Assembly (NCBI GenBank): GCA_964480775.1
Contig: CAYZRF010000009.1
Location: 30,001-62,000, forward strand
Reading direction: 5' to 3'
DNA length: 32,000 bases
Source of the DNA: an uncultured Nitrososphaerota archaeon
Lineage (GTDB): Archaea > Korarchaeota > Korarchaeia > Korarchaeales > Korarchaeaceae
Position 1 is the first letter of the stretch. Each line of letters starts with the position of its first letter. The translations under genes were made by a program, and so were the position numbers. This document shows, in pieces, positions 2,654-30,960 of the stretch. Under the pieces are notes generated by a model. The model did not search any database. It saw only the letters and a program-made list of their open reading frames with translations, and had not been told where the DNA came from.

Positions 2654-3457
2654 CTACCAAAATCCTATGGCTTTGACTCCATTCTTCTTTATCCAAAGGT
2701 TGACTAGCTTCATTGCAAGTATAGCAAAAATTAGCATAATTGCGCACACTATTATCGAGAAGAGGAGGGCCTCCCTCACTAACTCGGGCGGGGCTGAGGA
2801 TATTGCAACCTTCACCAGATGAGAAGGAGCTGTGTATGGAATGCACAGGTAAATTAGCCCCGTTCTTTTTGGAAGAGAGTGAACTGGAATCATCATAAGT
2901 CCGATAACACCTAAATTTAGTATTTCAAGCAAATTGCCAGGTATACTTGTTCTCATAGAAATGGCAGCAATTGTAAAACCATAAGAAAGGCTCTCTATGG
3001 CAAGTAAGGTCATACCTGTAATTAACAAAGATATTTGATCCACTGTTAGCAGATCAACATTGAATGCTCCTCTAACTAACGCTGCCATGAACAGAAGGGA
3101 GGACGCAATTACGGTGGACCCAGTAACAAGTCTTCCGAGCAAAGTCTTGAAGGGGGAGAACCCCCTAAGCAAGTGTTCTTCCACCATACCTATAGAGATG
3201 AAAAATCTCATCCAACCACCTACAAGCGAGGAGAAATTGGATATCATACTCCAAGCTACTATCACCCAAAAGGCACCCTTAACAACCGTAGTTAGTTGTT
3301 CTTTAGGTACAAATAGCAGAGATCCAAGTACAAACAGGAACACCCAAGCAGCTTCAGAAAGTATCATGTTCAAGAATGACCATTTGTACCGCCAAAGCCT
3401 AATGGTATGGAGGTATAAGACTGCTTTCATTCGAACTAGGGCAGGTTTTAACTTCAT
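2654..3457 (-). CDS. ABC-2 type transporter permease
   Basis: 267-aa ORF that is almost entirely hydrophobic helices. Its start overlaps the upstream permease stop by 4 nt (ATGA). It is the last gene of the ATPase-permease-permease unit. Confidence 0.75.
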   Translation of the reverse strand: MKLKPALVRMKAVLYLHTIRLWRYKWSFLNMILSEAAWVFLFVLGSLLFVPKEQLTTVVKGAFWVIVAWSMISNFSSLVGGWMRFFISIGMVEEHLLRGFSPFKTLLGRLVTGSTVIASSLLFMAALVRGAFNVDLLTVDQISLLITGMTLLAIESLSYGFTIAAISMRTSIPGNLLEILNLGVIGLMMIPVHSLPKRTGLIYLCIPYTAPSHLVKVAISSAPPELVREALLFSIIVCAIMLIFAILAMKLVNLWIKKNGVKAIGFW

Positions 3458-16029: not shown

Positions 16030-17751
16030 GTGGAAAAACTAAAAGGAATACCAGCATCGCCAGGCATAGCAATTGGAAGGGCCTTCATATTCAAGAGTGA
16101 AAGGAGGGAGGTTGTGAAAAAAGAGATTCCTCCCGAGCTTATTGATACGGAAATAAATAGATTTAATCAAAGTTTAGGGAAAGCAAAAGAATTTCTAACA
16201 GAATTGATGGAAAAAGTTAGAAGAGAGGTAGGAGAGGAGGAGGCGAAGATTTACGAGGCTCAACTAATGATGCTTGAGGACGAATCTTCATTTATCGAAC
16301 CAGTGAAGAAGATGATTTCTAATAAGAAAGTTTGCGCAGAGTTTGCCGTTGAAAAAGTTCTCGATGAGATTATTGCCATATTCAAGAAAATGGATAACGA
16401 GTACATGAGAGAACGCGCAACTGACGTTAAAGACGTAAAAGAACTCGTAATAAGCTTTCTGTCTGGAAAAAAGAGAGGAGTCAAAGAATTAACAACAAAG
16501 TGTGTTATAGTAGCAAGTGAACTCTTACCGAGCGACATAGCTGCTCTTAACAAAAGAATGGTCTTGGCGTTTGTGACAGAGACTGGAGGATCTACCTCTC
16601 ATGTCGCGATAATAGCTAGGACTCTTAAGATTCCAGCAGTGGTAGGGATAGAGAACCTGTCTAACAGGGTTAAAGAAGGAGACATGCTTATCGTTGATGG
16701 ATATGAGGGATTATTATTACTCAATCCAACAGAGGAGATTGTGTCTCTCTATCAAAAGAAGAAGAAAGAAGGGGAAGTAATGTTCGTTGAACTGGTTAAA
16801 GAAGCAAAACTACCAGCAACTACAAAAGATGGATTTAGATTTAAGGTCTTTGCTAATGTTGGCAATTTGGAAGATGTAAAAAAAGCAATTGAGTATGGGG
16901 CTGAAGGCATAGGTCTTCTTAGGACGGAATTCATGTATACGGAAAGAGAAAATATGCCTACCGAAGAAGAACTCTTTCAAACCTTTCTCGAAATAAGCAA
17001 GTTAATGGGCGACAAACCAATCATCATCAGAACTTTGGATATCGGGTGTGATAAGCCGCTTCCATATCTTGAAATGCCCAAGGAAGCAAACCCTTTCCTT
17101 GGCTGGAGGGGTATTAGATTAACTCTAGAAAACCCTGAGATACTAAAAATCCAGTTTAGAGCGGTCTTGAGAGCTTCAACAAAAGGGACCTTCAAGATTA
17201 TGTTTCCCATGGTAACAACGTTGGAGGAAGTCGTAAAGGCAAAAGAAATTTTAAAAGAAGTCTCAAAAGAGTTAAGTATCGAAAAAATCTCTTTTAAAGA
17301 AGTTAAAGTAGGAACTATGATCGAAACTCCAGCTTCAGCTATGATTGTAGATATCCTTGCTAAGGAGGTGGATTTCTTTAGCATTGGAACTAATGATTTG
17401 GTTCAGTATCTAATGGCTGCAGATCGAGGAAACGCAAGAGTTTCAGGACTCTATAGGCCTTTTCATCCAGCAGTTTTAAGGATGATACACAAAATAATTG
17501 AGGATGCTCATAAAGCTGGAAAAGAAGTTGGAATGTGTGGAGAAATGGCATCAGATCCAAAAGCAATTCCTATCCTTGTAGGAATGGGTTTGGACGAGTT
17601 TAGCATGAGTCCGTCTTCGATTCCGAGGGCTAAAAAAGTGATAAGGTCCATAAGTAAAAAGGAGGCTGTTAACCTCCTGCGAGAAGTCTTAAAGGCTAAG
17701 ACTATTTCAAATGTATTAGAAAAAGTTTCAAAATTTAGAATTGAGTTTTGA
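16030..17751 (+). CDS. ptsI: PEP-protein phosphotransferase (PTS Enzyme I)
   Basis: 573-aa ORF with a GTG start 2 nt after the ptsH stop. Phospho-His motif 'GGSTSHVAIIARTLKIPAVVG', PEP-utilising C-domain 'IGTNDLVQY' and 'GMCGEMASDP'. Confidence 0.92.
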   Translation: MEKLKGIPASPGIAIGRAFIFKSERREVVKKEIPPELIDTEINRFNQSLGKAKEFLTELMEKVRREVGEEEAKIYEAQLMMLEDESSFIEPVKKMISNKKVCAEFAVEKVLDEIIAIFKKMDNEYMRERATDVKDVKELVISFLSGKKRGVKELTTKCVIVASELLPSDIAALNKRMVLAFVTETGGSTSHVAIIARTLKIPAVVGIENLSNRVKEGDMLIVDGYEGLLLLNPTEEIVSLYQKKKKEGEVMFVELVKEAKLPATTKDGFRFKVFANVGNLEDVKKAIEYGAEGIGLLRTEFMYTERENMPTEEELFQTFLEISKLMGDKPIIIRTLDIGCDKPLPYLEMPKEANPFLGWRGIRLTLENPEILKIQFRAVLRASTKGTFKIMFPMVTTLEEVVKAKEILKEVSKELSIEKISFKEVKVGTMIETPASAMIVDILAKEVDFFSIGTNDLVQYLMAADRGNARVSGLYRPFHPAVLRMIHKIIEDAHKAGKEVGMCGEMASDPKAIPILVGMGLDEFSMSPSSIPRAKKVIRSISKKEAVNLLREVLKAKTISNVLEKVSKFRIEF

Positions 17752-18327: not shown

Positions 18328-18438
18328 GTGCCAGATGTAGAGAGAGGTGTTGATATAAGACTTCTCGTTGTATCTTTGGTGCTATTTTTATTTGTACTTA
18401 ATTCTTTTTCCTTATACGTCTATACTTACGCGCAGTCT
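18328..18438 (+). other. N-terminal signal peptide / signal anchor of the giant protein
   Basis: A charged n-region ([11 protein letters not shown]) is followed by the hydrophobic '[24 protein letters not shown]' and then 'QSSS'. Confidence 0.6.
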
Positions 18439-21400
18439 TCTTCTAGAGGAAATTTTGGACCCTCTCTTAGTATTAACCCTAGAAATCAAGGCCATATTCC
18501 CTTTCTTCAAAGGATCGAGGACATCTCAATTGAAGTCGATCTAGATGCACCTCAAGAGGTTGGAGAGTGCTCTCCTTCTACTTTTATCATAGAAGTTAAG
18601 AATACAGGGAATGAGACGGCAAAAAACCTGAATGTAACTAATGTAATGCCTGAGGGATTCTTTTATCAAGAAGGCAGTTCTTCAATAAATGGAACCCCCC
18701 ATGAGCCCACCCAGAGTGGTAGAAATCTTACTTGGAGCATAGGAGATGTTACTCCTAACCAGACTTTTATCTTAGAATTTAACTTAACTGCTGGATGTGA
18801 AGCACATACCGGGGCAGTAGACAAGGCCGTTGTAGAATATTCAAATGGGACTCACACAGATTACAGGGAAGATGAATCGTTGGGAATTAAAGTCCTTCAT
18901 CCTTCTCTTGTCGTTTACAAAGAACCTATTGTGATTCCAGCCCATAAAGGGGACATCGTGAACTGGACCGTCAGGGTCAAGAACGAGGGATTTTTCGCAG
19001 CCTCAAACGTGACGATTTTAGATTCTTTGGGGAGTGGTCTTTCCCTTAATTCTTCGAATCCATCTTATAACGGTTCTTTCCCTAATGGGACCATCTATTG
19101 GACCAATATCTCCCTAGATGTGGGTGAAGAGTTTGTTATTCAGCTCAAAGTAAAAGTTGTAGGTTGCGAGAATCTTACCAACGAAGTTAGAGCCTATCCC
19201 ACGTGCAATGGTCAAGTTTGTAGAAGGGTTGATGGGGTCCTAACAGAGCTTCCAAACACTCTTGCTTCCATAGAGTTTCTCAAAAGAGTTCCAAACATAC
19301 AAATTACTTCATCCACATTAAATCCAAGTCTAATAGGACCATGTAGTCCCTCAAACTTCACAATTTTCTTGGAAAATCAAGGAACCGGAGCTTCTTATTC
19401 AACCAACGTTACACTTGAATTGAGAGGTGGATTACAGTATGTAAACGGGAGCGGAAATCCAACTCCTACTGTTAATGGCGAAGTCTTAACGTTTCATATA
19501 GGTACAATAGAGCCTGGAGGAACCAGTAAGATATCCATGAACTTGTCCATCCCTTGTGGGACAAGCGGGACAAAACAGATTTTGATTCATATGAGATATT
19601 TCGATGAATGTGATAATCTTTGGCTCCCTCCAAGCACTTACCTTGGTGTTGATACATCTTCGCCATCGGTAAGCGTCAGCAAAACTGGACCTCATGAAAT
19701 AATCAACACAAGTTCTGGAGAGGTTTATACGGTAGATGTGGCTTGTAACGGCCTTAATCTCTGTCAAAACGCCCATGTGATTGTTAATGATTCAATACCT
19801 TCAATGCTCACTTACGTGAACAGCACCCCTCCGGGAAATTACGATCCAGTCAAAAACACCGTAACCTGGAATCTATCTGCAGGGAACTATACACTAAACA
19901 TCACATTGAAGCCCTCTCCTTCAGCAGGATGTGGGGATCATGGGATGAACGAAGTTACTGCAACGCTATTCTGCTGTAAAAATTGTAGCATTTCGGATTC
20001 CTCTTCCATATCCATAAGAGTAACCTGTTCTGAAATTCCGTCAGATTGTTTTCAAATAAGGTCATTCTCAAATCAGTCCTCTGTAGAACCCTGTAAAGGG
20101 TTGAACTACACCTCGACCATCAATTTTCTGGTCGATGGTATAAATTCCACTCGTTCCAACATGATATATTTCCATTACAATGAAAATGGGTTGAAGGAGG
20201 AGTACGTTGGTCCAGCTTACCTCTACCTTCCAAACGGGACTCAAGTTGCATTAGGTCCGCCTTTGCAGAATTCAACATGCCTGAGCTGGAATCTCAGCTC
20301 TTTGAACTTCATAGTCAATTCCGGAGACTCCATAAACATAACGTATGTCCTCAGAGTGAAGTGCAACGCTTCTTCATACATTCACGACGTCCAAGGATTC
20401 TCAATGACAGCAAGGGACTCTGCTGGAAACGACCTTAATTGCTCCGGTGTTGCGAGATGGGCAGCCTATATCTTGATCATAAGGGCCTCTATGTCGATTT
20501 CTGAGGAAATACCTCCCCTTCTGGACTTGTGTAGGGAGAGAGAGTATGAGGTGAGAGTAGAAGGTGCCACCAGCGCAAATCCGGGGTATAATGTTACCGT
20601 GGCAAAATACGTTCCTCCTAACTTCATTTATAACTCTACTACAGAAGTAGAGTTCTCGAACGGAACTATAGTCCAAGTCACTCCTTATTTTGAGAACAGA
20701 TGGCTAATTTGGAATAAATCAATCGTTTCCCAGCTTTCTAAGGTTGACTGTGATTTTTGGATAAGAGTAAATATGACTGCATGCTACAACAGGACCCCTG
20801 GCTTCCACTTTAAGGCAAATCTTACATGGGATGATTACTGTTTATATATTGGAGGGTGTACACCGGATTGTACTTGTAGACGTACGGACATATATGACAG
20901 CGGTTCAATTCTCATCCTGAAACCTGAGTTCGTTATACTTAAGACTCCAGAGGTTATTTATGCTATACAACAAGAAGTAAAATGGAGGATTCAGCTCTCA
21001 AATGTAGGAAACGGCTCTGCATATTCACCAGCTTTCAAGCTTGTCGATCTCCTTGGAGAGGGTCTCGTATGCGTTGGAACTGACTTGCCAACTGGTTGGT
21101 CTGCAACTATCTCGCCTGACAGAAGAAACGTGACCTTTACTGCTCAATCCCTTGACGCAGGGGAGACTGTCGAGTTTAACTTGACCGCTAAGATGGTTAA
21201 GTGTGAGGGACTAACGAACAATGTCTCTGCTTTGTGGGGATGCTGCGGTAAATGGTTCCAGATGGATTTCGATAACTCTTCCGTAGAGGTCCCATCGGCA
21301 GCAGTATCAATCACAGATCACTTAGAACCGCAAGCAGCCAAACTTTGTTACGATCAAAAAGTAACAGTTAAGCTGAAGAACGTAGGTAAAGTTGCCATCT

Positions 21401-24400
21401 ATAACTGTACCTTAAACTATACGCTTCCAAATTGCTATGTCTACAATAGCAATGTCCAGGCCTATGTGAACGGAACTCCATTTAATCCAAATCTCTCAGG
21501 CAATAGATGGGCGCTCTGGAACTTCACGCAAACAACATTCGATGAAATTCTTCCGAATGAGTTTACAGAAATCGTTTTTAACGCAACAGCAACGTGTCCA
21601 TGCGACATAGATAATTCTGGTGGCTACTCAGCAACGTTACTTTCCTATGCCAAAGCCTGTGGACAAGTCGTCGGTCCATTCAATTACACTGGAACTGCGC
21701 TTTACACAGTAGATGCTCCGGACATCTACCTTGTAGTCCCATCCTATATCTGTGGGGAGGCCGGAGATATTGTATGGTGGAATTTAACAATTAGAAATAG
21801 AGGAAGTGCTACTGCAGAGCTTGTTAATGTTACGGTCGAGATTCCGGCAAGCGTTTCAGTGATATCTACGATTCCTGCTCCAGACTCAGTTGCAGGCAAC
21901 ATTTACACCTGGTTAACTCAGTCAGTTGGTGGTAAGGTTCCTGACATACCCCCGAACGGGGAATTTGAGATAGACATGCGCGTTAGGGTTGATGATTGTG
22001 ATCCTCAAGATTATCTTAAAGTGAAGATAGAAGATGGTTGCCCTGGATGTTTCTTTGAAAGGGAATGGTACAATAATACTACCTATGTCCACAGTCAACC
22101 ATTCCCACCCGAAATACATCAAGACTTAGAACCTGTTAACGCGTGTGGAAATGCAACATATAAAGTGCAAGTAGCAAACGAAGATCCCTGTCTCTCGTTG
22201 TACGCAACTCAACAAGGCGCAAATTATGTCCTAACTTTCCTCGATTATCTGCCAACCGGGATATCATACAGAGGCGAGTCAGGCGACTGGGATGTCCTAT
22301 TCCATGATAATGAGACGGGATCAAACACTAGCATGAATGCCAATACGATTTTTTCTTATGATCAGGTTAATAACGTCATAAACTGGACGATCGTCCTCTC
22401 ATCTTTTGAGATGACACCTGGAGATTATTTCATATTCACCTTCAACGTTACATCTCAGATCTGTGATCTTTCGTCAGGAAATAACGTGTTTCAGGCTACA
22501 AAGTTCAAAGATTCTTGCGGATATGATATTTCAGCAAGTAACACCGCTAGAGCACCGATTTTATTACCAGATCTATCGATATCCAAGACTCCTAGCGTTC
22601 AATACGGTGATCTTTACGATCAGGTTTGCTGGAACATACGGGTCACCAACAACGGTAACGGCACTGCCTACAATGTTACAATATGGGATGTACTCTGCCA
22701 AGCTTTGTCTTTTGATGAGAATGCTCAAGCATCAACAACGCCCTGGGACCTAGTTTATCTCCCTGGGGTTAATGCGTCCGGGGCTGAGACGACTATAGTC
22801 TGGAAGAATAGAGTTATACCACCTGGAGGTTATGTCACATTAGTCCTATGCGCAAATATCTCGGCTTGTCCTGTTCCTCCACAACACCCATACGATGATG
22901 CTTATGCGAACTGGGGGTGTGACTCCTACTGTAATTACTCAACTCCAGTCCATGCTCATGCCGATGTCTACATGTATGGAGTTCCAAGTCCACTCTCGAA
23001 GTCTCCGACGTCATTTAATGTTTGTGGAAATGAAACGATAGAAATTTCAGTAACCAACGCAGGCGCGACGATGTTTGGAATATGCATAAATGAAACGCTT
23101 CCGTATGGTCTTGATCCCATTTTCATTGACACCTCAGGAAATGTTCTTGCAAACGTTACCTTAGGGACGACTACCTACTATAACGTGCCGAGTAACTATA
23201 CTGTAAGTGTTTCAGGGCTGTACGAAAGAATAATTTGGAATCTAACGAAAATTAATGTTTCACAAGGTCAAACACTATATTTGAGATTTAGGGTTCATGC
23301 AAATTGTAGTTTTGATTTCTCTACTGAGACAGTTAACATCACGTATTGGGACTCCTGTGGAGAAGTTTATTCTATGGAGAGAGAAGATCTCCTCAGGCCC
23401 CTCAGACCAGATTTATCGATAAGCTATAAGACTAAAACCCAGCCAGCTGGTAGACCCGATAGATTTGAACTTGTTGAGTGGGAAATTCATGTGATAAACT
23501 CTGGAGACGGGGATCTTTACTTCTTAAACGTTTCAGACAAGTTGGGATCTCAATTCAAATTTATTTCATCATCACCCTCTCCAGATTGGGTTGATGACCC
23601 ATTAGACCCTCACATCCTAAAGTGGAGTTTTGACTGGAGTAGCAGTCCGTTATCTCCTGGAGATGAATACGTAATAACTATCAGGGCGAACCTTACTGGT
23701 TGTGCAGAGCCCGGATGGAACAATGCATCTCTAGTTTGGGGTTGTGATTCTGTAGCTTGTGCACCAATTTCTTGGGCAAATAGCTCCGTTGAGAGAGCAA
23801 AACCCGACCTAGTTGTTTCTTATTCATCTCCGCCCTTCTTGATCTGTGGAAATACTACTGTCAATTTCTACGTTACAAATATTGGTGATGGGTCTGCTTT
23901 TGGATTTAACTCCAGCCAGCCATTTAAATTGAGATATCTCTTCCCTGTAAGAGCTCCAAATCTTGATTGCATGAAATATGTTTCCGGAAGCACGAACATC
24001 TCGTTCTCAAACGGGACCATAATACATCCAGAGCCTCAGATATTGATGGTTGGGGGAGAGAAGTTCCTTGAATGGAACCTGTATTGGATACAAGTTGGAC
24101 CTGGAGAACGGATAAATGTCAGCTTTAAGGTCATTGCCTCTTGCTGTTTCCAAAAAGGAGACAATGGTTCGGCATATGCTAGCTGGTATGACTTATGTGG
24201 TAATTTCGGTGAAGACGAGGATATAGATGCGGCCTCTCAAATACTAATTCCGGACATTTCCTTGAGTAAAACGCCAACCACTGTTGGGGCAGATCGTTGG
24301 GATAACGTCTCTTGGCTTATCGAAGTGCGGAATGATGGGAATGGAACTGCTAATTTTGTGAACGTCACGGAAGTATTTGGATCGGGACTTACATATATCA

Positions 24401-27234
24401 CAGATAATGCCTCTCAATACAGAGTTTATTCAGACCATAACAAGGTTGTCTGGAACTTAACAGAAATACCTGCAGGAGATAGGATTCTCATAGTATCGTG
24501 GGCAAATGTCTCAGGATGTAGTGGACTGACAAACGATGTTTACGCAAGCTGGGGATGTATTGGGGCAATTTGTCAGGAGAAGAATAGCTCAACAACAGTT
24601 TATTTGATTTGGCCAAACATATCAATAAGCAAAAAACCGGTTGGGGGTACTTGCCCAGTTAGAGTTGAGCCAGGAGATGTTACCACATTTGAGATTTTGT
24701 TAAATAATTCTGGAACAAAAGGCACGGGGTATAACCTCACAGTAGAGGACGAAATGCCTTCGTTCATGGAGTTTTTAGACGCAAGCGATGGAGGTACTTA
24801 CAACGCTAGTACCCACAACGTCACATGGAAGATCTCAAAGCTAGGAAATGAGACTATGATGTTAACCTTGACTATGCGTGTTAAACCTGGAACTCCAGAC
24901 GGAGCTGCTGAAATTAACAACGTTACTGTCACTTACTTTGACGCCTGTGGCAATACTAAGAACCCAGACACTGGCGCTCCTTATTGGGACAAAGCAGAGT
25001 GTAAGATGATAACTGTTGCTGCTCCAGAGTTAAGAATCAATAAAACAATATCAGAAAATCCAATAAATGCTTGTCATAACGTCAGCGTCATTTTAACAAT
25101 TAGAAACATTGGACATGGAACTGCATATTCTGTAAATGTCTCAGATATTCTTCCACCAGGAATAGAGTATGTCAAAGGATCAACCGAGGTAAGAAACTCT
25201 TCTACAGGTGCCATAATATCAACGGCAGATCCTGTGGTAACCACGATGGGAACTTCTGGGAGAACTAACCTTACATGGCCTCTTAATTTAAAGATGAACG
25301 GAAAGGAGAATATAACCATAAGCTTTAATCTAACTGCTGGGTGCGGGCTTAAAGCAGGGTTAGAAGAGTTTTCTGTTGTTGGTAAGGATGGAGGAGGGTT
25401 CATTAAGAGAGACAGTGGTTCTATGGATATTTTGGTCGTAATACCAGTTCTTGAAGTCGAAAAAGAGCCAGAATCACAGACAAAGTCCCTCGGGAGCGTT
25501 GTAGAATGGACGATAACCGTCAGAAATGTTGGAAACGGGACCGCACACAACGTGACGTTAGTAGATCAGCTTGGTCCAGGTTACGAATTTGTTTCTGCAA
25601 ACGGTTCTTACAGCATATCAGGAAACACAATAACGTGGACTAACATCTCTTTGACTTCAGGATCCTCTCAGAGCTTTAACATTAAGGCGAGGATCTCCAA
25701 GTGTTCTGGTCTAAAGGAGCACGTTGAAGCCAGTTGGTGGTGTAGAAACGTATCTTGTGCCTCATCCGAGGCAGAGGCAAGGGTTTCTCTTAGAGCTCCC
25801 AAATTAACGGTTGAAAAGCAATTCAATGCCAGTTTCGTTAAGATAAGAGAGCCAGTTCTTGCAACGATCAGGGTCAGAAACGTTGGAAATGAAGGGGGAA
25901 CAAATCTAATGGTTTTTGAACCTCTACAAGAATGTTGGACTTTCCTTGGAACGGTTAGTGTTCTGGACGAATCGGGTAGGCCAGTTGGATACAAAGAAGA
26001 AATCACTACAGAGGGAGTGGTTTGGAGGATAAACTCCTTAGGCAAAGGAGAGGAGGTCGAGATAAAATTCGTTATAACTTATGATTGCAATTCGCTTCCA
26101 GGATCAAGACGTCAGCACAACTTCACAAACTGTGTTCTAGCAAATCTTACAGGAAGTTGTGGTCCAGTGTCGGCGACCAATTGTTCATGGATTGTCGTGG
26201 AACTCCCATCGAGAACACCGACACCTACTCCGACTCCCACTGTTACTCCGACTCCAACACCCACAGCCACACCAACCCCAACACCGACACCTACTCCGAC
26301 TCCCACTGTTACTCCGACTCCAACACCGACGCCTGCCCCACCGATCAAACTGAAGGTTTCAAAAGCCTCTAAGAAGATCATAATGTGGGGAGATCTGGTA
26401 AACTACACGGTTATAGTAAGGAATGAAGGAAATACCAACCTAGTAAACATAGCGGTGACAGACAATCTTCCTTCTTACCTTGAATACATACGTGGAACTT
26501 CTACGATAAATGGTCATAAATCTGAACCAAAAATTGAGCAAGATTCGCTTATTTGGATAATTTCGTCTCTAGCTCCAGGAGAAGAAGCCATCATAAAGTT
26601 CAGTTGTAGGATGCTTGAATACCCAAGAGGAGGCATCATAATCAATCCTGTGAATGTAAGAGGGTTCGAGACGTACGCACGGTCTCTAATATATGCCCCA
26701 ATTTCATTACTTCTATTAATACCGTTATTTGTACTGACAACAAGGAGGAGACCTGTAGTTGTCGACTTTGAATATCTAAAAACGCTATTCAAAGCAACGG
26801 ATTTCTTCCTTCCGTTTCTCTTCGGAAAAATTATAATCTCAAAATCTACATTTGAAAAGGCTACAAGAGATAAGAAAATCAGCAACATAGTTGAAGAACT
26901 CGTTTCAAGAGGTCTAATTCAAGTTCACGAACTATCACAAGAAGCTAGGGAACTCTCAGAAGAAATTACAAGCATCTATCAGGTAGAAAAAGAGGAAGGC
27001 GATGCTATAGCACTATCACTTCAATGCGAAGCTGAGAAAGCTCTGTTAGGTAGAATTAAGACAAGAGAGGTTGCTATTTCATTGGGTATAAGAGCGTTGG
27101 GGTGTGGAGGTTCGATATTTTATCTAATCGAGAAGGGCTTGATCACCAAAGAGGAGGGGCGAGTCCTTCTCGATTTTTTAGTTTCTGAGGGATATCTTAC
27201 AAGTTCCGAAGATATAAGTTTGGGAGGGGTGTGA
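18328..27234 (+). CDS. Giant (2968 aa) DUF11/CARDB-like repeat surface glycoprotein with PT linker, C-terminal TM anchor and cytoplasmic PIN-like tail
   Basis: Uninterrupted 8.9-kb ORF with a GTG start. N-terminal signal/anchor. About 20 Ig-like modules carry the DUF11 core '[VI]xWx[IV]xVxNxGNGTAxNVxVxDxL'. By my hand count there are roughly 115 N-x-S/T sequons. Cys-rich. PT-rich linker, TM helix, then a 163-aa tail. Confidence 0.9.
26215..26343 (+). repeat. Pro/Thr-rich linker containing a perfect 47-nt direct repeat (26215-26261 and 26281-26327, 66-nt period)
   Basis: 'acaccgacacctactccgactcccactgttactccgactccaacacc' occurs twice, identically. The region translates to [43 protein letters not shown]. 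Confidence 0.95.
26686..26742 (+). other. C-terminal transmembrane anchor of the giant protein
   Basis: '[19 protein letters not shown]' is followed by the stop-transfer residues 'RRR'. Confidence 0.75.
26743..27231 (+). other. Predicted cytoplasmic PIN-like domain (COG2405/DUF3368-type), probably catalytically degenerate
   Basis: The 163-aa tail resembles the family consensus as I remember it. The matching segments are '[30 protein letters not shown]' and '[44 protein letters not shown]...[13 protein letters not shown]'. The usual DD pair is GR here. Confidence 0.55.
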
Positions 27235-27235
27235 A

Positions 27236-27700
27236 ATGATAAGTCTAGATGAGAAAGAATTAGAGAATATGAAAAAAGAAAGGTTAGATAAGCTCATAAA
27301 AAGATCGGAGGAAGTGAGAAGAACTCAAAGAACTCGCAAACTGATAGCGTCCGTACTTATCATAGTTTCTGTGTTTCTAGTAGTGGTTTCGTGGGTGATA
27401 CTAGGGTTCACATATAAATACACCATAGCAGGAGCTATTGGTTCTGTCTTACTTGGAATAGGGTTTTATCTACTTTTCACTGAGCCAGGGCTTAAGCCCA
27501 AAGCGACTTTGATAGATGAAGTACAGTTAGCAGTAACACAATATGAAGGAAAAAGATTGAAGGAAGAAATCAGAGCCGCCATTGGAAGACATAGAGATGA
27601 ACCGCACTTAGCTGCAAGACTTGAATCCATTCTTTCTACTAAAGATGGAGAAGAGCTTACTAAGGCATTAAGAGAGTTAATAAGCGCCTTTAAGGGCTAA
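27236..27700 (+). CDS. Small membrane protein with a 2-TM hairpin and charged helical N- and C-terminal regions
   Basis: 154-aa ORF. ATG lies 1 nt after the giant gene's TGA and 6 nt after GGGAGGGG. Two hydrophobic helices: 'LIASVLIIVSVFLVVVSWVILGF' and 'IAGAIGSVLLGIGFYLLF'. I recognise no family. Confidence 0.7.
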   Translation: MISLDEKELENMKKERLDKLIKRSEEVRRTQRTRKLIASVLIIVSVFLVVVSWVILGFTYKYTIAGAIGSVLLGIGFYLLFTEPGLKPKATLIDEVQLAVTQYEGKRLKEEIRAAIGRHRDEPHLAARLESILSTKDGEELTKALRELISAFKG

Positions 27701-27921
27701 TTGGACTATAATGGCCTCCTAGCATTTTTATTCTGCTAAAAACTTAGGATGTTTAGAAATTTAGCCGTCATATAGCCCAATCTATGGCAAGTTGATTAGA
27801 GACCGAGAACATCTCTCTTACAACCCGAATAACGCGTTATAATTGACTATGTCAAAAAATAATTGACATTATACCTTTAGAATCAAAAAAGAAGGAGAGA
27901 TATCATAAAAATATGTTGTCA

Positions 27922-29022
27922 TTAAATCGATTCGAATCTGTCCTTTAATTTCTCCAACACTTCTGGTAGAGTTGTATATTCCATTTCTGTAGATCCAAGT
28001 CTATGCGGCATAAATGGTCCATGCCTCCTGAGATAATCGGCAATTTCGTTTGCAATTTTCCTTGCCCTGTCAAATGAAACGTCAGAAAGTAAGTCACTAG
28101 GTCCGATCAGTTTGCCATTCTTAACGTTAAACCCCAGACCCACAACTCGCGGAGGGCCATCAAATCTACTCGGTCTAGCGTCTTTAAGCGAAACAGGCAT
28201 TAATGGACCATGATGCGAACCCCTCATCCAGCCAGCAACGAGATGGGACATGGCAAATGGTTCTAAAATCTCTCCCAACGCAGGGAATTGGCTTTGTGCA
28301 CGTACAATTGCTACTGGATCATCCTTTCCGACGTATTTTCCTGCTATGAGGCTTAATTTTGTCGTACTAATGGCTGCTGCAATATCCTTCTTCTCTCCCT
28401 TTGTATAGACCCTTCTCACGATATATCTGCTGGGAGTACCAATAAGGGCCAGTATATCATACATCTCCTCGGGACTTGATAACTCAACCTTTTTCCCTTC
28501 ATGAACATCCAAAACCTCGAAGATGAAGCCATCATGAAGTTTAGGCGAGATTACCAGTCCGGCTGTGTTGAAAGGATCGGCAAATATCTTGAACATGGGC
28601 AGGTTGAAGGCTCCGGGTTCTGTTTTATCAGCCATAAATACGACAAATGGCTCCGCTGGTCTTTCTTCGATTTCTATCTCGGCAAAGCCAGGTCCCATTC
28701 CACGTAAATTTCCTGAAAAGGCATCTGAAAGCAAATCTTGGCCAGCTCCATATAATCCAAGCTCTTTCGAGACATCTGTTGCTTTCTTGAAAATCTCCCA
28801 AGCGAGACTGTGTATATCTGAGGAATTCTCTCCTTTCTTGTGAGTCATTATGAGTTGTAAGTCGTCTCCTACCGCAGTCACGAAATAGTCAACTACTTCT
28901 CTTTTTCTCTTGGCTTCTGCTAACAAAGTCCGAGCAACTTCTAGCAGTTGATCTGGAACGATGTGATGTCCCGCTAAACTTCCAATATCGGCCTTAATTA
29001 CAGAAATCGTTATCTTGGCCAT
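27922..29022 (-). CDS. fbp: Fructose-1,6-bisphosphate aldolase/phosphatase (class V FBPase)
   Basis: 'MAKITISVIKADIGSLAGHH' is the characteristic N-terminus of the archaeal bifunctional FBP A/P, and the length is right at about 366 aa. ATG 29022 is preferred over the track's GTG 29052. Confidence 0.9.
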   Translation of the reverse strand: MAKITISVIKADIGSLAGHHIVPDQLLEVARTLLAEAKRKREVVDYFVTAVGDDLQLIMTHKKGENSSDIHSLAWEIFKKATDVSKELGLYGAGQDLLSDAFSGNLRGMGPGFAEIEIEERPAEPFVVFMADKTEPGAFNLPMFKIFADPFNTAGLVISPKLHDGFIFEVLDVHEGKKVELSSPEEMYDILALIGTPSRYIVRRVYTKGEKKDIAAAISTTKLSLIAGKYVGKDDPVAIVRAQSQFPALGEILEPFAMSHLVAGWMRGSHHGPLMPVSLKDARPSRFDGPPRVVGLGFNVKNGKLIGPSDLLSDVSFDRARKIANEIADYLRRHGPFMPHRLGSTEMEYTTLPEVLEKLKDRFESI

Positions 29023-29115
29023 TTTTCGATCCCTGAACAATAGTTCATGCACCTAAAAAAGGATTTGTCATGTTGAAGTAATCTGTTAGCAAATATTCGG
29101 AAATCTGTCTTAAGG

Positions 29116-30960
29116 TTGGTATATCGGAATGATTATGATTATAATGGCTTTTATGTAGTTATCTGTGACTTGAAGTTAGTAAGGATAACAGCAGTGTTCC
29201 TTATTTCCGCTCTTGCAATTTGTGGAGTGGTAGAGCCCATAGCTTCCTCGCTTTCTCAAGAATTTAGGATATTTCATGGCTTAGACGTCAAAAAACCAAT
29301 ATTGATTGTTTATAGAGACAAGTTTTCAATGCCTGCCAATCTAATGGCTCTTTCCATAAGATATTATGCAGTTAGGCCAGAGGATCTTAGAAACATAGAT
29401 ATATTCGATTTTTCAGCCGTTATATTTGATTATGGTGTCGGGCACGAAGACGTCAGCGGCTGGATCATATCAAACAATTGGAAACTCATAAAGTGGCTTG
29501 AAAATGGTGGAGCTTTTTTAGATTTCACATCTGGAGAAAGAGTTGTTTTCTTTGATTTAGAAATAGCTATTCCCGAAAATTTTGAGGTAAAGATAGTAGA
29601 AGATCACCCACTTCTGCATTGCCCTAATGTTCTAACTGATGTATCACCCGTGGCGCAAGTTGCATTCACTGGAGGCTCTGATCTGCAGAATTTTAAGGTT
29701 ATAATGGAAGCAGGAAGCAAGCCAACCTTATTGGTAAGGGAAATAGGGAGAGGGAGAGTTGTAATTTGTGGTCTTTACGGGGTTGGACCTTGGTTTAAGG
29801 GAGGTTTTATTGAAAATGCTCTTTATTGGGCTACAAAAGGCCAATTTTGGTCATCAACAGTATATGCGATGAGAAAAGATACTGAACACTTTGCTGTCCT
29901 CTATCCTCCTTTTGCGAACAAGTCAATACCGTTAATTTTGCCTTATTTGGATCAGGTGTACAATCTATTGGCCAAACTCTCAAGAAGACATCCATATAAT
30001 GGAGATAGAATTGTATTGGACTTTACCAAAGACATTTACTGGAGACTTGGTATGCCGGTGTCTGCTCTAGGAGGAAACCCGACTTTCATCGATATATGGA
30101 TGCTTCCTGAGGTTGGAGGCGATCAAGAAAGGCTGATCTCTGTAATCTTCCATGAGATGGGTCATGTTTTCTTAGGAAGTTACGATTTCTTGTATGGGGA
30201 CTTCTCGGAAATGCTTGCTGAGGTATCAAAGCTCTATCTACTCGAAAACCTTGGATTCAATGAACTTTTTGAGAAAGAGGTGAACGAGGCTTTAACTGCG
30301 CTTGAGATCTACGAAATAAATGGCGCAAATTTCTCCGAAATAAATGTGGAGGTCCTTACAGGTATGATGTTTAAGTTAAAGGAGGAGTACGGGTGGGAAC
30401 TCTTCTCAAGATACTTCAATCTTGTGGATAGATACGCTGTTTTTCCAAGGATTTCCTTCGATAGAAAAGTAAGTGCATTCGTTTATTTAATTAGCATAGC
30501 AGCTGGAGAGGACTTAAGTGACAAATTCAAAGAGTGGGGTTTCCCCATTATAAAAGCTCGGATCTCGTGTAATTTAGACAAGGTTTGGGGGCAGACAGGA
30601 AAGCCCATTAGAGTAGTTGGAGTTTTGGAGCCCCCAGTTGTGGGAGTAATTTTCATTGATTACAGAGTGGAGGGATCTAATAGATGGAAAGTGTTAGGAG
30701 TGACATCTACAGATGAATATGGATATTACAAATTTGAGTGGACGCCTTTTATTGAAGGGAGGTATGAGATAAGAGCTAGATGGGTGGAAGGTGTTGACAA
30801 CGAATTAGCGAGGTCTGAAATAAAATCCCTCACCACAGCCAAAAGCTTTCCTCTTAGTGAGCTGGGGGTTGGAAAGGTATTAATTCTTCTACTAAATCCT
30901 TTAGGTGCCTCTATCCTTTTGCTTTTCCTTCTTTTCATACACAAGAAGTTAAAACGCTAG
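29116..30960 (+). CDS. Membrane-anchored extracellular protein with an HExxH (gluzincin-like) motif and a C-terminal Ig-like domain plus TM anchor
   Basis: 614-aa ORF (TTG start, uncertain). N-terminal hydrophobic anchor 'ITAVFLISALAICGVV'. 'VIFHEMGHVFLG....FSEMLAE' (HExxH with a downstream Glu). 'YGYYKFEWTPFIEGRYEIRARW' is a beta-sandwich-like segment. C-terminal 'VLILLLNPLGASILLLFLLFIHKKLKR'. Confidence 0.6.
   Translation: MVYRNDYDYNGFYVVICDLKLVRITAVFLISALAICGVVEPIASSLSQEFRIFHGLDVKKPILIVYRDKFSMPANLMALSIRYYAVRPEDLRNIDIFDFSAVIFDYGVGHEDVSGWIISNNWKLIKWLENGGAFLDFTSGERVVFFDLEIAIPENFEVKIVEDHPLLHCPNVLTDVSPVAQVAFTGGSDLQNFKVIMEAGSKPTLLVREIGRGRVVICGLYGVGPWFKGGFIENALYWATKGQFWSSTVYAMRKDTEHFAVLYPPFANKSIPLILPYLDQVYNLLAKLSRRHPYNGDRIVLDFTKDIYWRLGMPVSALGGNPTFIDIWMLPEVGGDQERLISVIFHEMGHVFLGSYDFLYGDFSEMLAEVSKLYLLENLGFNELFEKEVNEALTALEIYEINGANFSEINVEVLTGMMFKLKEEYGWELFSRYFNLVDRYAVFPRISFDRKVSAFVYLISIAAGEDLSDKFKEWGFPIIKARISCNLDKVWGQTGKPIRVVGVLEPPVVGVIFIDYRVEGSNRWKVLGVTSTDEYGYYKFEWTPFIEGRYEIRARWVEGVDNELARSEIKSLTTAKSFPLSELGVGKVLILLLNPLGASILLLFLLFIHKKLKR

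Follow-up and report, generated by a model that had tools for sequence, protein, structure and literature searches.

A giant CLIPPER/DUF11 surface protein of a probably korarchaeal lineage continues past its membrane anchor into a PIN-like domain

In the 32,000-nucleotide stretch of archaeal DNA analysed here (the window), the gene for a giant anchored surface protein continues, without a stop, from its transmembrane (TM) anchor into a PIN-type domain homologous to the COG2405/DUF3368 group, and this fusion is genuine rather than an assembly artefact. As judged from its residues, the domain would lie in the cytoplasm and is probably no longer a nuclease. Directly downstream follows the gene of a two-TM protein that accompanies the giant in its relatives. 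We propose, with a probability of roughly 55%, that the giant carries its PIN-derived tail as a non-catalytic docking or oligomerisation module, with the two-TM protein as its most likely ligand. The architecture is new and its component domains are known; its function we infer. The features, all on the plus strand, are as follows.

18328..27234, +, giant surface-protein gene, 2968 aa, from the open reading frame (ORF) list and translation
18328..18435, +, predicted Sec-type signal peptide, aa 1-36, hydrophobic core aa 13-31, ending ...YAQ/SS
26215..26340, +, Pro-Thr-rich linker, aa 2630-2671, from sequence
26686..26742, +, single TM anchor helix, aa 2787-2805, second strongest hydrophobic segment of the protein
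26743..26754, +, stop-transfer/juxtamembrane linker RRRP, aa 2806-2809 (RRR 2806-2808, P 2809)
26755..27234, +, PIN-like tail domain (COG2405/DUF3368/PDC-S70 type), aa 2810-2968 plus stop, 159 aa
27236..27700, +, co-conserved partner gene, 154 aa, orthologues directly downstream of the giant
27341-27409 and 27422-27478, +, the two TM helices of the partner

The giant is one uninterrupted reading frame, in which a signal peptide is followed by about 15 DUF11/CLIPPER-type Ig-like repeats, the Pro-Thr linker (with P/T/S-rich equivalents in two deeply diverged orthologues, L004 and L003), a last CLIPPER domain, the TM anchor and the PIN-like tail. Pfam DUF11 matches it over 15 stretches (E 6.7e-121), accompanied by DUF7507, DUF7619 and CARDB. 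The protein thus has what marks CLIPPER/DUF11 fibrillar-adhesin-like proteins, namely tandem repeats in a secreted and anchored chain, here with an N-terminal signal, a C-terminal TM helix and 116 N-glycosylation sequons. The signal-peptide cleavage site was placed from sequence only, with the start codon taken as in the ORF call. Only two strongly hydrophobic 19-mers occur in the whole protein, the N-terminal signal (aa 13-31, the strongest) and the anchor helix, and all orthologues have a TM-length hydrophobic stretch at the place matching the latter.

Exactly as the original prediction had it, 163 residues follow the anchor helix, and a single P separates RRR from VVVDFEY, which begins at aa 2810. 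Several features suggest that this tail is cytoplasmic. All 116 sequons of the giant fall in the ectodomain and none in the tail (P about 0.001), the orthologous tails likewise contain none against 3.4-4.2 per 100 aa outside, and Asn drops from 8% outside to 0.6% in the tail of the giant; the tail is also depleted in Cys, and the residues flanking the anchor follow the positive-inside pattern. The juxtamembrane linkers vary among orthologues (RRRP, RKKP, LRRH, GRRP) with a constant spacing of four residues to the first PIN strand, which suggests that the domain works at the membrane.

A missed stop or an indel near 26750 could in principle have merged two genes, that of a surface protein with an ordinary anchor and a small PIN-like one, and the RRR codons, AGGAGGAGA, do resemble a ribosome-binding site placed 6 nt before the GTA codon of V2810, with in-frame GTG (L004) and ATG (L003) codons at the VV(V/M) position. 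However, the window, L005 and L009 have no start codon at this position, so that an internal start is not conserved; an exhaustive phmmer search of 1.84 billion proteins returned no stand-alone protein of the fused subclade; and the frame is open over the junction, with differing codons, in six sequences from at least five samples. To such an artefact we give almost no credence. The Logan assembly of SRR15988952 matches window positions 26298..29208 with 0 mismatches, and the search for related DUF11 giants with the same tail yielded five further sequences with the fusion intact (tail identity 99, 84, 45, 30 and 29%). The fused set, all of it from metagenome assemblies, counts six with the window: L007, a 99% strain variant, comes from another metagenome, L009, a relative at 84%, from another run, and L004, L003 and L005 are deeply diverged orthologues. 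In frame, all five keep the junction of TM helix, basic residues, P/H and (V/A/I)V(V/M)D.

The giant is colinear with its orthologues along its whole length, at 59, 45 and 37-40% identity, and its tail is under purifying selection (dN/dS, omega, 0.16). Among deep orthologues, conservation of the tail does not exceed that of the ectodomain (43 vs 42% and 31 vs 36% identity). Two orthologues are affected elsewhere in the giant by an in-frame stop (L003) or a frameshift (L005), and two proteins that might have passed for shorter architectures, P0004 (327 aa) and P0005 (1122 aa), were traced by tblastn to gene-call fragments of these same colinear giants. Two others, P0003 and P0007 (3098 and 2078 aa, with six matching stretches each), were discarded as homologues, their scores being inflated by leucine-rich-repeat/plectin-like repeats. 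Genome and metagenome scans returned the same few loci and no further ones; the fusion, together with the partner gene, is conserved in a few hydrothermal lineages that are probably korarchaeal.

The original prediction of a complete COG2405/DUF3368-type domain after the anchor of a DUF11 giant is borne out by sequence, fold, topology proxies, conservation and selection. Profile and structure matches both point to this family. In hhalign the tail aligned with COG2405/DUF3368 over 159 columns (probability 99.5%, E 1.3e-22), the PADLOC PDC-S70 models matched it at E 6.6e-8 and hit all four fused tails scanned, and a profile match to the Nob1/VapC6 PIN structure 2lcq reached E 1.3e-4. The phmmer search returned stand-alone proteins of 125-178 aa (E 1e-5 to 1e-3, alignments of 120-150 residues), of which seven of the eight scanned carried PF11848, five of them over the Pfam cut-off. 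The expected direct hmmscan match did not appear, since neither a PIN nor a DUF3368 model in Pfam and NCBIfam matched the tail, PF11848 being absent at E<=1; the link to PF11848 stands through these intermediate sequences and the PADLOC profiles. PF11848.14, the model of which covers the C-terminal 46 aa, also appears in the precomputed annotation of the 99%-identical protein P0001. A phmmer search of PDB sequences with the tail found nothing meaningful, and a word-indexed homology search returned nothing for the tail alone and only clade members for a four-tail profile. A dPPR10 match in the PDB profile search was set aside as a repetition-inflated artefact.

The predicted structure agrees with the profiles. 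An AF2 model built from the multiple alignment (pLDDT 90.5, pTM 0.85) alternates strands and helices, and Foldseek retrieved the PIN fold with it: the top 50 matches were nearly all PIN domains, including VapC, Nob1 and 2mdt, at probability 1.00 and TM-scores of 0.5-0.68, yet with E-values of only 1e-3 to 1e-1. This model replaced a poor single-sequence one (pLDDT 61.6, with marginal VapC matches only). Our own HMMs, run on the window and the related loci, found no second copy of COG2405 and no additional partner gene.

The substitution of GR for the DD/DE of the family, pointed out in the original prediction, is real (G2908 and R2909), and a second catalytic position, occupied by E in the family, is K2844. 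Both changes, E to K/R and D(D/E) to G(R/K), occur in 6/6 fused sequences, while the Asp concerned is invariant in 13/13 stand-alone proteins. Because two acidic positions are replaced in every fused member, the tail is probably not a nuclease, which lends support to the earlier suggestion that activity may be lost. Of the conserved D, E, E, D active site of the COG2405 group only D2813 and E2890 are kept; these, with D2892, are the acidic residues retained in the tail, and some remaining metal binding or catalysis is therefore conceivable. The family tolerates variation, for Matelska et al. include in COG2405 proteins with no more than 2-5 residues of the active site (PMC5499597).

The partner gene starts 1 nt after the stop of the giant in the window, and its orthologues (37-97% identity) lie immediately 3' of the giant in L003, L004, L007 and L009; as called, the two genes share 4 nt in L009 and 23 nt in L003, and in L004 17 nt lie between them. 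The protein has a charged N-terminal helix, two TM helices and a helical C-terminal region of about 70 aa with invariant TLIDE and H.DE motifs; both of its ends, aa 1-35 and aa 82-154, are predicted to be cytoplasmic. Its dN/dS (omega) is 0.06, and homologues were found in the fused-giant clade only. Scans against Pfam, NCBIfam, PADLOC and PHROG gave no credible family, the candidate identities SLATT, DUF3040 and Cse2 all being sub-threshold. For the SLATT family of two-TM effectors there was no significant profile match: SLATT_5 reached E 0.03-0.04 in 3/5 orthologues, with 13.8 bits against a cut-off of 29.5, and RTasSLATT reached E 0.005, with generic two-TM families scoring equal or better. 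The locus lies in a neighbourhood of housekeeping metabolism, with no defence island.

To accommodate these observations we picture the giant as a type-I surface protein of fibrillar-adhesin-like build, heavily N-glycosylated, in a hydrothermal archaeon that is probably a korarchaeon; its ectodomain would form a stalk of CLIPPER/DUF11 repeats. Its cytoplasmic domain, four residues (RRRP) past the TM helix, would derive from a stand-alone COG2405/DUF3368 PIN-like protein of toxin type, the metal-binding pocket of which was remodelled in the fused clade by replacement of Glu with Lys/Arg and of Asp and its acidic neighbour with Gly-Arg/Lys. So altered, the tail was probably exapted for docking or oligomerisation close to the membrane. 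The ligand would most likely be the two-TM protein, through its cytoplasmic part; this protein, co-transcribed and co-conserved with the giant, is encoded directly downstream, and together the two might link the filament at the surface with a small complex in the membrane, be it for anchorage, for assembly or for coupling to the cell interior. SMG5 and Nmd4 are examples of inactive PIN domains that act as protein-binding modules, and Nmd4-Upf1 (8rd3) was among the Foldseek neighbours of the tail. Both the loss of catalysis and the binding of the tail to the partner are suppositions in this scheme. Of the two readings offered at the outset, docking or coupling and a polymorphic-toxin layout, the first is the one we favour.

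A further reading is one of outside-in transduction. A substrate, partner cell or virus would engage the 2780-residue extracellular stalk or load it mechanically, and the single TM helix with its rigid four-residue linker would pass this on to the PIN-derived domain, which would then gate or recruit the partner, or an RNA or protein ligand. We consider this reading unlikely; if true, it would make the giant, with its tail and partner, an archaeal receptor at the cell surface, assembled from an exapted module of toxin-antitoxin type.

Surface-coupled defence or abortive infection is likewise doubtful in our estimate. Here the giant would be an exposed sensor of virus attachment or mechanical load, and the PIN-like tail, active or activating, would with its partner form the effector, cleaving RNA or permeabilising the membrane. 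That the best curated-profile matches of the tail are the PDC-S70 models speaks for it; PDC-S70, however, is itself a candidate PIN-nuclease defence gene, enriched in Archaea, without experimental validation (PMC12988326). The three acidic residues kept in the tail have to be set against the two catalytic positions replaced in every fused member, and the resemblance of the partner to two-TM effectors against the fact that its SLATT-like matches lie far below threshold, on the TM segments, and are outscored by generic families. Nor does the housekeeping neighbourhood favour this reading. If either signalling or defence were correct, the giant would represent a new kind of archaeal surface receptor.

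We see slim prospects for regulated release, by which an intramembrane protease or a sortase-like enzyme would cleave the TM region upon shedding or engagement of the ectodomain and free the PIN-like domain as a cytoplasmic signal or regulator. All orthologues have a Pro at the outer TM edge (YAPIS, AFPLT, TIPSI, LNPIS), and this motif with the TM helix and the Arg cluster loosely recalls tripartite C-terminal sorting signals. However, known archaeosortase and exosortase signals sit at the extreme C-terminus, with no domain of 160 aa behind them, the window has no protease or sortase gene linked to the giant, and the constant four-residue spacing suggests a function at the membrane. The locus superficially resembles a polymorphic toxin, in which a repeat protein carries a toxin at its C-terminus as cargo and a small gene after it encodes the immunity protein: it too has giant repeats, a toxin-family C-terminal domain and a small downstream gene. 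This reading is nevertheless very improbable. The domain comes after a stop-transfer anchor and its RRR, on the wrong side for a cargo, and has neither the sequons nor the high Asn content of the exported part. All relatives have it as an orthologue under purifying selection (omega 0.16), with no swapping; its catalytic residues are degenerate; and the next gene encodes a two-TM protein that is conserved (omega 0.06), not a variable immunity protein.

What we describe is a PIN domain of toxin-antitoxin or defence type that appears to have been recruited, disarmed and retained by selection as the inner end of a surface filament of about 3000 residues with a clade-specific membrane partner. If it serves for docking, it would offer a concrete and testable way to learn how giant surface structures are anchored in, or coupled to, the cells of uncultured hydrothermal archaea that are probably Korarchaeia, and would be a clean prokaryotic case of a PIN toxin domain turned by exaptation to structural use.

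Archaeal surface proteins and CLIPPER-type proteins normally end at the anchor or a few basic residues beyond it, and for giant adhesin-like proteins a cytoplasmic domain is, to our knowledge, essentially undescribed; a literature search for PIN domains on the tails of archaeal surface proteins found nothing. With CLIPPER (DUF11) fibrillar-adhesin-like proteins the giant has in common the stalk of tandem CLIPPER/CLIPPER_2/DUF7619 domains, the signal peptide and the C-terminal anchor, to which it adds a folded cytoplasmic domain of 160 aa; in the passages of the CLIPPER survey consulted, anchors such as an OmpA-like domain are described and a cytoplasmic domain goes unmentioned (PMC12617251).

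COG2405 belongs to the VapC-like supergroup, with 2mdt (SSO1118) as reference structure, and its members typically form pairs with a UPF0175 antitoxin-like gene or an HTH/DUF955 partner (PMC5499597). The tail is homologous to COG2405/PF11848 over its full length of about 160 aa, helical extension at the C-terminus included, with the PIN fold in common and the first-strand Asp and the G-E-x-E motif kept. In contrast to the soluble, stand-alone proteins of about 160 aa that make up the family, paired with UPF0175 or HTH genes, it is fused to a 2968-aa anchored giant, lacks the invariant Asp, and has as its neighbour the gene of a two-TM protein instead of UPF0175: the small ORF upstream of the giant encodes a ferredoxin and is not UPF0175-like, and profile scans of the downstream gene gave no UPF0175 or HTH match. 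The membrane-associated PIN-TRAM proteins of PIN.COG4956 share with the giant a PIN domain tethered to the cytoplasmic side of the membrane (PMC5499597), but are bacterial members of another PIN subgroup with four N-terminal TM helices, a TRAM domain, mostly kept active sites and no giant ectodomain; the Pfam scan of the giant gave no match to them. With Nmd4 and SMG5, in which a PIN fold with a degenerate acidic site acts through partner binding, the resemblance is one of structural analogy within the superfamily only; these are soluble eukaryotic RNA-decay factors.

The giant surface protein of the window, its membrane anchor and the gene downstream of it (hereafter the partner) are placed as follows.

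18328..27234, + strand: ORF of the giant, a single uninterrupted frame of 2968 aa
26686-26742, + strand: TM helix of the giant (aa 2787-2805), by hydrophobicity
27236..27700, + strand: partner gene, 154 aa, starting one nucleotide after the giant's stop

A Pfam scan matched 15 DUF11 stretches in the giant (E 6.7e-121), and also DUF7507, DUF7619 and CARDB. According to a recent survey (PMC12617251), DUF11 and DUF7507 are now named CLIPPER and CLIPPER_2; they are CnaA-like domains, frequently with isopeptide bonds, that build the stalks of fibrillar-adhesin-like surface proteins in bacteria and archaea. Only two segments of the giant are strongly hydrophobic, a signal-like N-terminal one (aa 13-31) and the TM helix. 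Behind the latter, RRR, one Pro and VVVDFEY follow and the chain runs on to residue 2968; every feature of the original prediction lies at the coordinates it gave. Where the helix begins on its outer side (window 26695-26700, P2791 region), all orthologues keep a Pro, in the motifs YAPIS, YAPVP, AFPLT, TIPSI and LNPIS.

The Logan assembly of SRR15988952 is identical to window 26298..29208; since it possibly derives from the window's own reads, it rules out an assembler artefact only. Independent evidence for read-through comes from other samples, in which fused orthologues with the same tail, that is, the C-terminal PIN-like domain, were found at five loci: L007 (JGI metagenome), a strain variant at 99%; L009 (source run SRR21418557), with a tail ~83% identical to that of the window; L004 (QMVU01000066, Guaymas MAG B8_G17), at 43-45% tail identity; and L003 (ENA scaffold) and L005 (GCA_033582115.1), at about 29-31%. 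In each, the TM helix leads in one frame through 2-3 basic residues and P/H to (V/A/I)V(V/M)D(Y/F), and the read-through is thus real, with the frame common to six concordant sequences that differ in codons. By tblastn the orthologues are colinear with the entire giant at 59, 45 and 37-40% identity. Two database entries, P0004 and P0005, were rejected as short proteins; they are gene-call fragments of colinear giants, produced by a single in-frame stop replacing the Cys codon of a W-G/W-C repeat motif (L003:6505-6507) and by a frameshift (L005:~3034-3085), both far upstream of the tail. These interruptions reflect either errors in MAG assembly or sequencing or the onset of pseudogenisation.

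Direct profile scans of the tail against Pfam and NCBIfam gave no match, phmmer against the PDB gave nothing, and neither did a word-indexed homology search. An exhaustive phmmer search of 1.84 billion representatives returned 19 matches: the window's own protein, three fused orthologues, two false positives and 13 stand-alone proteins of 125-178 aa, with PF11848/DUF3368 present in seven of the eight stand-alones scanned (five of the seven passing the Pfam gathering cut-off). The false positives, P0003 (leucine-rich-repeat type, 3098 aa) and P0007 (plectin-repeat-like, 2078 aa), owe their E-values of 4e-9 and 3e-5 solely to six weak matches against residues 107-148 that were added together; repeats inflate whole-sequence E-values in this way. 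Profiles of the four fused tails and the 13 stand-alones aligned over 159 columns (99.5% probability, E 1.3e-22), a partly circular comparison as the stand-alones were chosen by similarity to the tail, while the phmmer E-values hold library-wide. In PADLOC, an independent curated library, five PDC-S70 models match the tail over nearly its full length (best E 6.6e-8), and all four fused tails match PDC-S70 models; PDC-S70 is an unvalidated single-gene PIN-nuclease defence candidate, mainly archaeal (PMC12988326). An AlphaFold2 model from a 17-sequence alignment (pLDDT 90.5, pTM 0.85) retrieved from the PDB by Foldseek nearly only PIN domains (Nob1, many VapCs, PAE0151/PAE2754, 2mdt/SSO1118), at probability 1.00 and TM-scores of 0.5-0.68 with modest E-values of 1e-3 to 1e-1, and the sequence profile reached the PIN domain of 2lcq (E 1.3e-4). 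Matelska et al. (PMC5499597), in their classification of PIN domains, use 2mdt as the reference structure for COG2405 and place COG2405/PF11848 in the VapC-like group as potential toxins with UPF0175 as exclusive partner family. Thus phmmer, profile-profile comparison, PDC-S70 and structure modelling agree on the PIN-like COG2405/DUF3368 identity first proposed for the tail.

The alignment shows that the tail retains the first-strand Asp (D2813) and the invariant Glu of the G-E-x-E motif (E2890), whose neighbour is still acidic (D2892). All fused sequences have Lys or Arg in place of the helix Glu of the "vY.E" motif (K2844 in the window), and the Asp of "liDD/DE", present in 13 of 13 stand-alones, is replaced together with its acidic neighbour by Gly and Arg/Lys in six of six fused sequences (G2908 R2909 in the window, the 'GR' from which loss of nuclease activity had been suspected). 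Judged from these positions, the pocket has lost two acidic and gained two basic residues, a state conserved clade-wide. Since this Asp is required for metal binding in PIN nucleases, the tail has likely lost nuclease activity.

Against L009, Nei-Gojobori omega is 0.16 in the tail (44.7 synonymous, 32.3 non-synonymous differences) and 0.24 in the adjacent ectodomain, and at 0.06 the partner gene is under strong purifying selection; against L007 the tail carries 2 non-synonymous and 7 synonymous changes. Together with the conserved read-through, these counts indicate that the tail is translated and under constraint. As to topology, the basic cluster directly behind the helix is consistent with the positive-inside rule. 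N-x-S/T sequons number 116 in the ectodomain (4.2 per 100 aa), while the 163-residue tail contains none (Poisson P about 0.001). The tail is also poor in Asn (0.6%, as opposed to 8.0% outside) and in Cys (1.2%, as opposed to 2.9%). Four diverged orthologous tails likewise have no sequon in about 670 aa, compared to 3.4-4.2 per 100 aa in the outer parts of these proteins. Indirectly but strongly, this points to a tail that never meets the glycosylation machinery and is thus cytoplasmic. The spacing between TM helix and first PIN strand is four residues in every orthologue, which implies that the tail must sit against the membrane's inner face. The codons of the stop-transfer RRR (window 26743-26763) read AGGAGGAGA, a string that is Shine-Dalgarno-like and 6 nt before the GTA of V2810. 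The VV(V/M) codons include an in-frame GTG in L004 and an in-frame ATG in L003; as a start codon is absent from this position in the window, L005 and L009, internal initiation giving a free PIN-like protein is not conserved, though possible in some lineages.

The partner opens with a charged N-terminal helix, followed by two TM helices and a ~70-aa helical C-terminal region. In L003, L004, L007 and L009 the gene next downstream of the fused giant is its orthologue (37-97% identity, with TLIDE and H.DE motifs invariant), and gene calls place these orthologues at an overlap of 23 nt (L003) or 4 nt (L009) or a gap of 17 nt (L004). Pfam, NCBIfam, PADLOC and PHROG gave no credible family, only sub-threshold generic two-TM matches; a SLATT-like assignment was rejected, its signals not being reproducible, and no relatives were detectable outside the fused-giant clade. 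Neither a UPF0175-like gene nor a second COG2405 copy was found near the giant, whose neighbours are metabolic (PEP-utilising enzyme, ferredoxin, archaeal class V FBPase, 2-oxoacid dehydrogenase components), together with a proteasome subunit. Three nearby genes deserve mention.

16030-17751, + strand: PTS Enzyme I-like gene, 573 aa
17860-18108, + strand: single-cluster 4Fe-4S ferredoxin, 82 aa (Fer4_15, E 2e-15)
29116-30960, + strand: ORF of 614 aa; Peptidase_M60 (enhancin-like) match at E 1e-5, borderline with 25.7 bits where the cut-off is 25.8

The first has all three PTS Enzyme I domains (PEP-utilisers_N, mobile domain, PEP-binding domain; E 8e-119), and its presence in a korarchaeal-like genome would be notable, as PTS-type Enzyme I is unusual in archaea apart from a few Thermoproteota and the haloarchaea. 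The ferredoxin gene lies in the gap between this PEP-utilising enzyme gene and the giant, and the third product may be another secreted or surface-active protein. A terminator-like hairpin with T-run (GAGGAGGGGCGAGTCCTTCTC GATTTTTT; window 27151-27180, +) lies within the tail coding region, ~60 nt ahead of the stop codon and a short way before the partner gene; it may be due to chance, since two such sites were found with 0.8 expected by shuffling. QMVU01, the WGS prefix of L004, also serves in GTDB as placeholder name for a genus and a family of Korarchaeia from marine hydrothermal sites (PMC10667645, PMC12787533), and if that name comes from L004's MAG, the fused-giant clade is probably korarchaeal, and by extension the window too.

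In the best-supported reading of this entirely computational evidence from a small, uncultured clade, a giant CLIPPER adhesin gene of the clade ancestor would have captured a stand-alone COG2405-type PIN protein at its 3' end; the captured protein would have lost its catalytic pocket and would since have been kept as a membrane-proximal cytoplasmic module. Most likely, this module docks the co-inherited two-TM partner or oligomerises the giant. Inactive PIN domains serving as binding modules have precedents in Nmd4 and SMG5, and the Nmd4-Upf1 structure is among the Foldseek neighbours of the tail. A defence or signalling device coupled to the surface is a possibility with weak support, and proteolytic release of the PIN-like domain is speculative. 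The polymorphic-toxin layout, one of two readings in the original prediction, is contradicted by topology, orthology and selection alike. An artefactual fusion is contradicted by the six concordant sequences.

While the CLIPPER and COG2405 families are both known, their combination, a CLIPPER giant with TM helix, degenerate COG2405 PIN domain and dedicated two-TM partner, is not. By phmmer, the fused architecture is confined to one orthologous group among the representatives searched; no description of it was found in the PIN classification (PMC5499597), in full-text literature searches or in the accessible part of the CLIPPER survey (PMC12617251). The Pro, TM helix and Arg cluster of the giant loosely resemble a tripartite sorting signal, but here the Arg cluster precedes a 160-aa domain. 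The nearest membrane-tethered PIN group, PIN.COG4956, differs from the tail in subfamily, topology and partners (PMC5499597).
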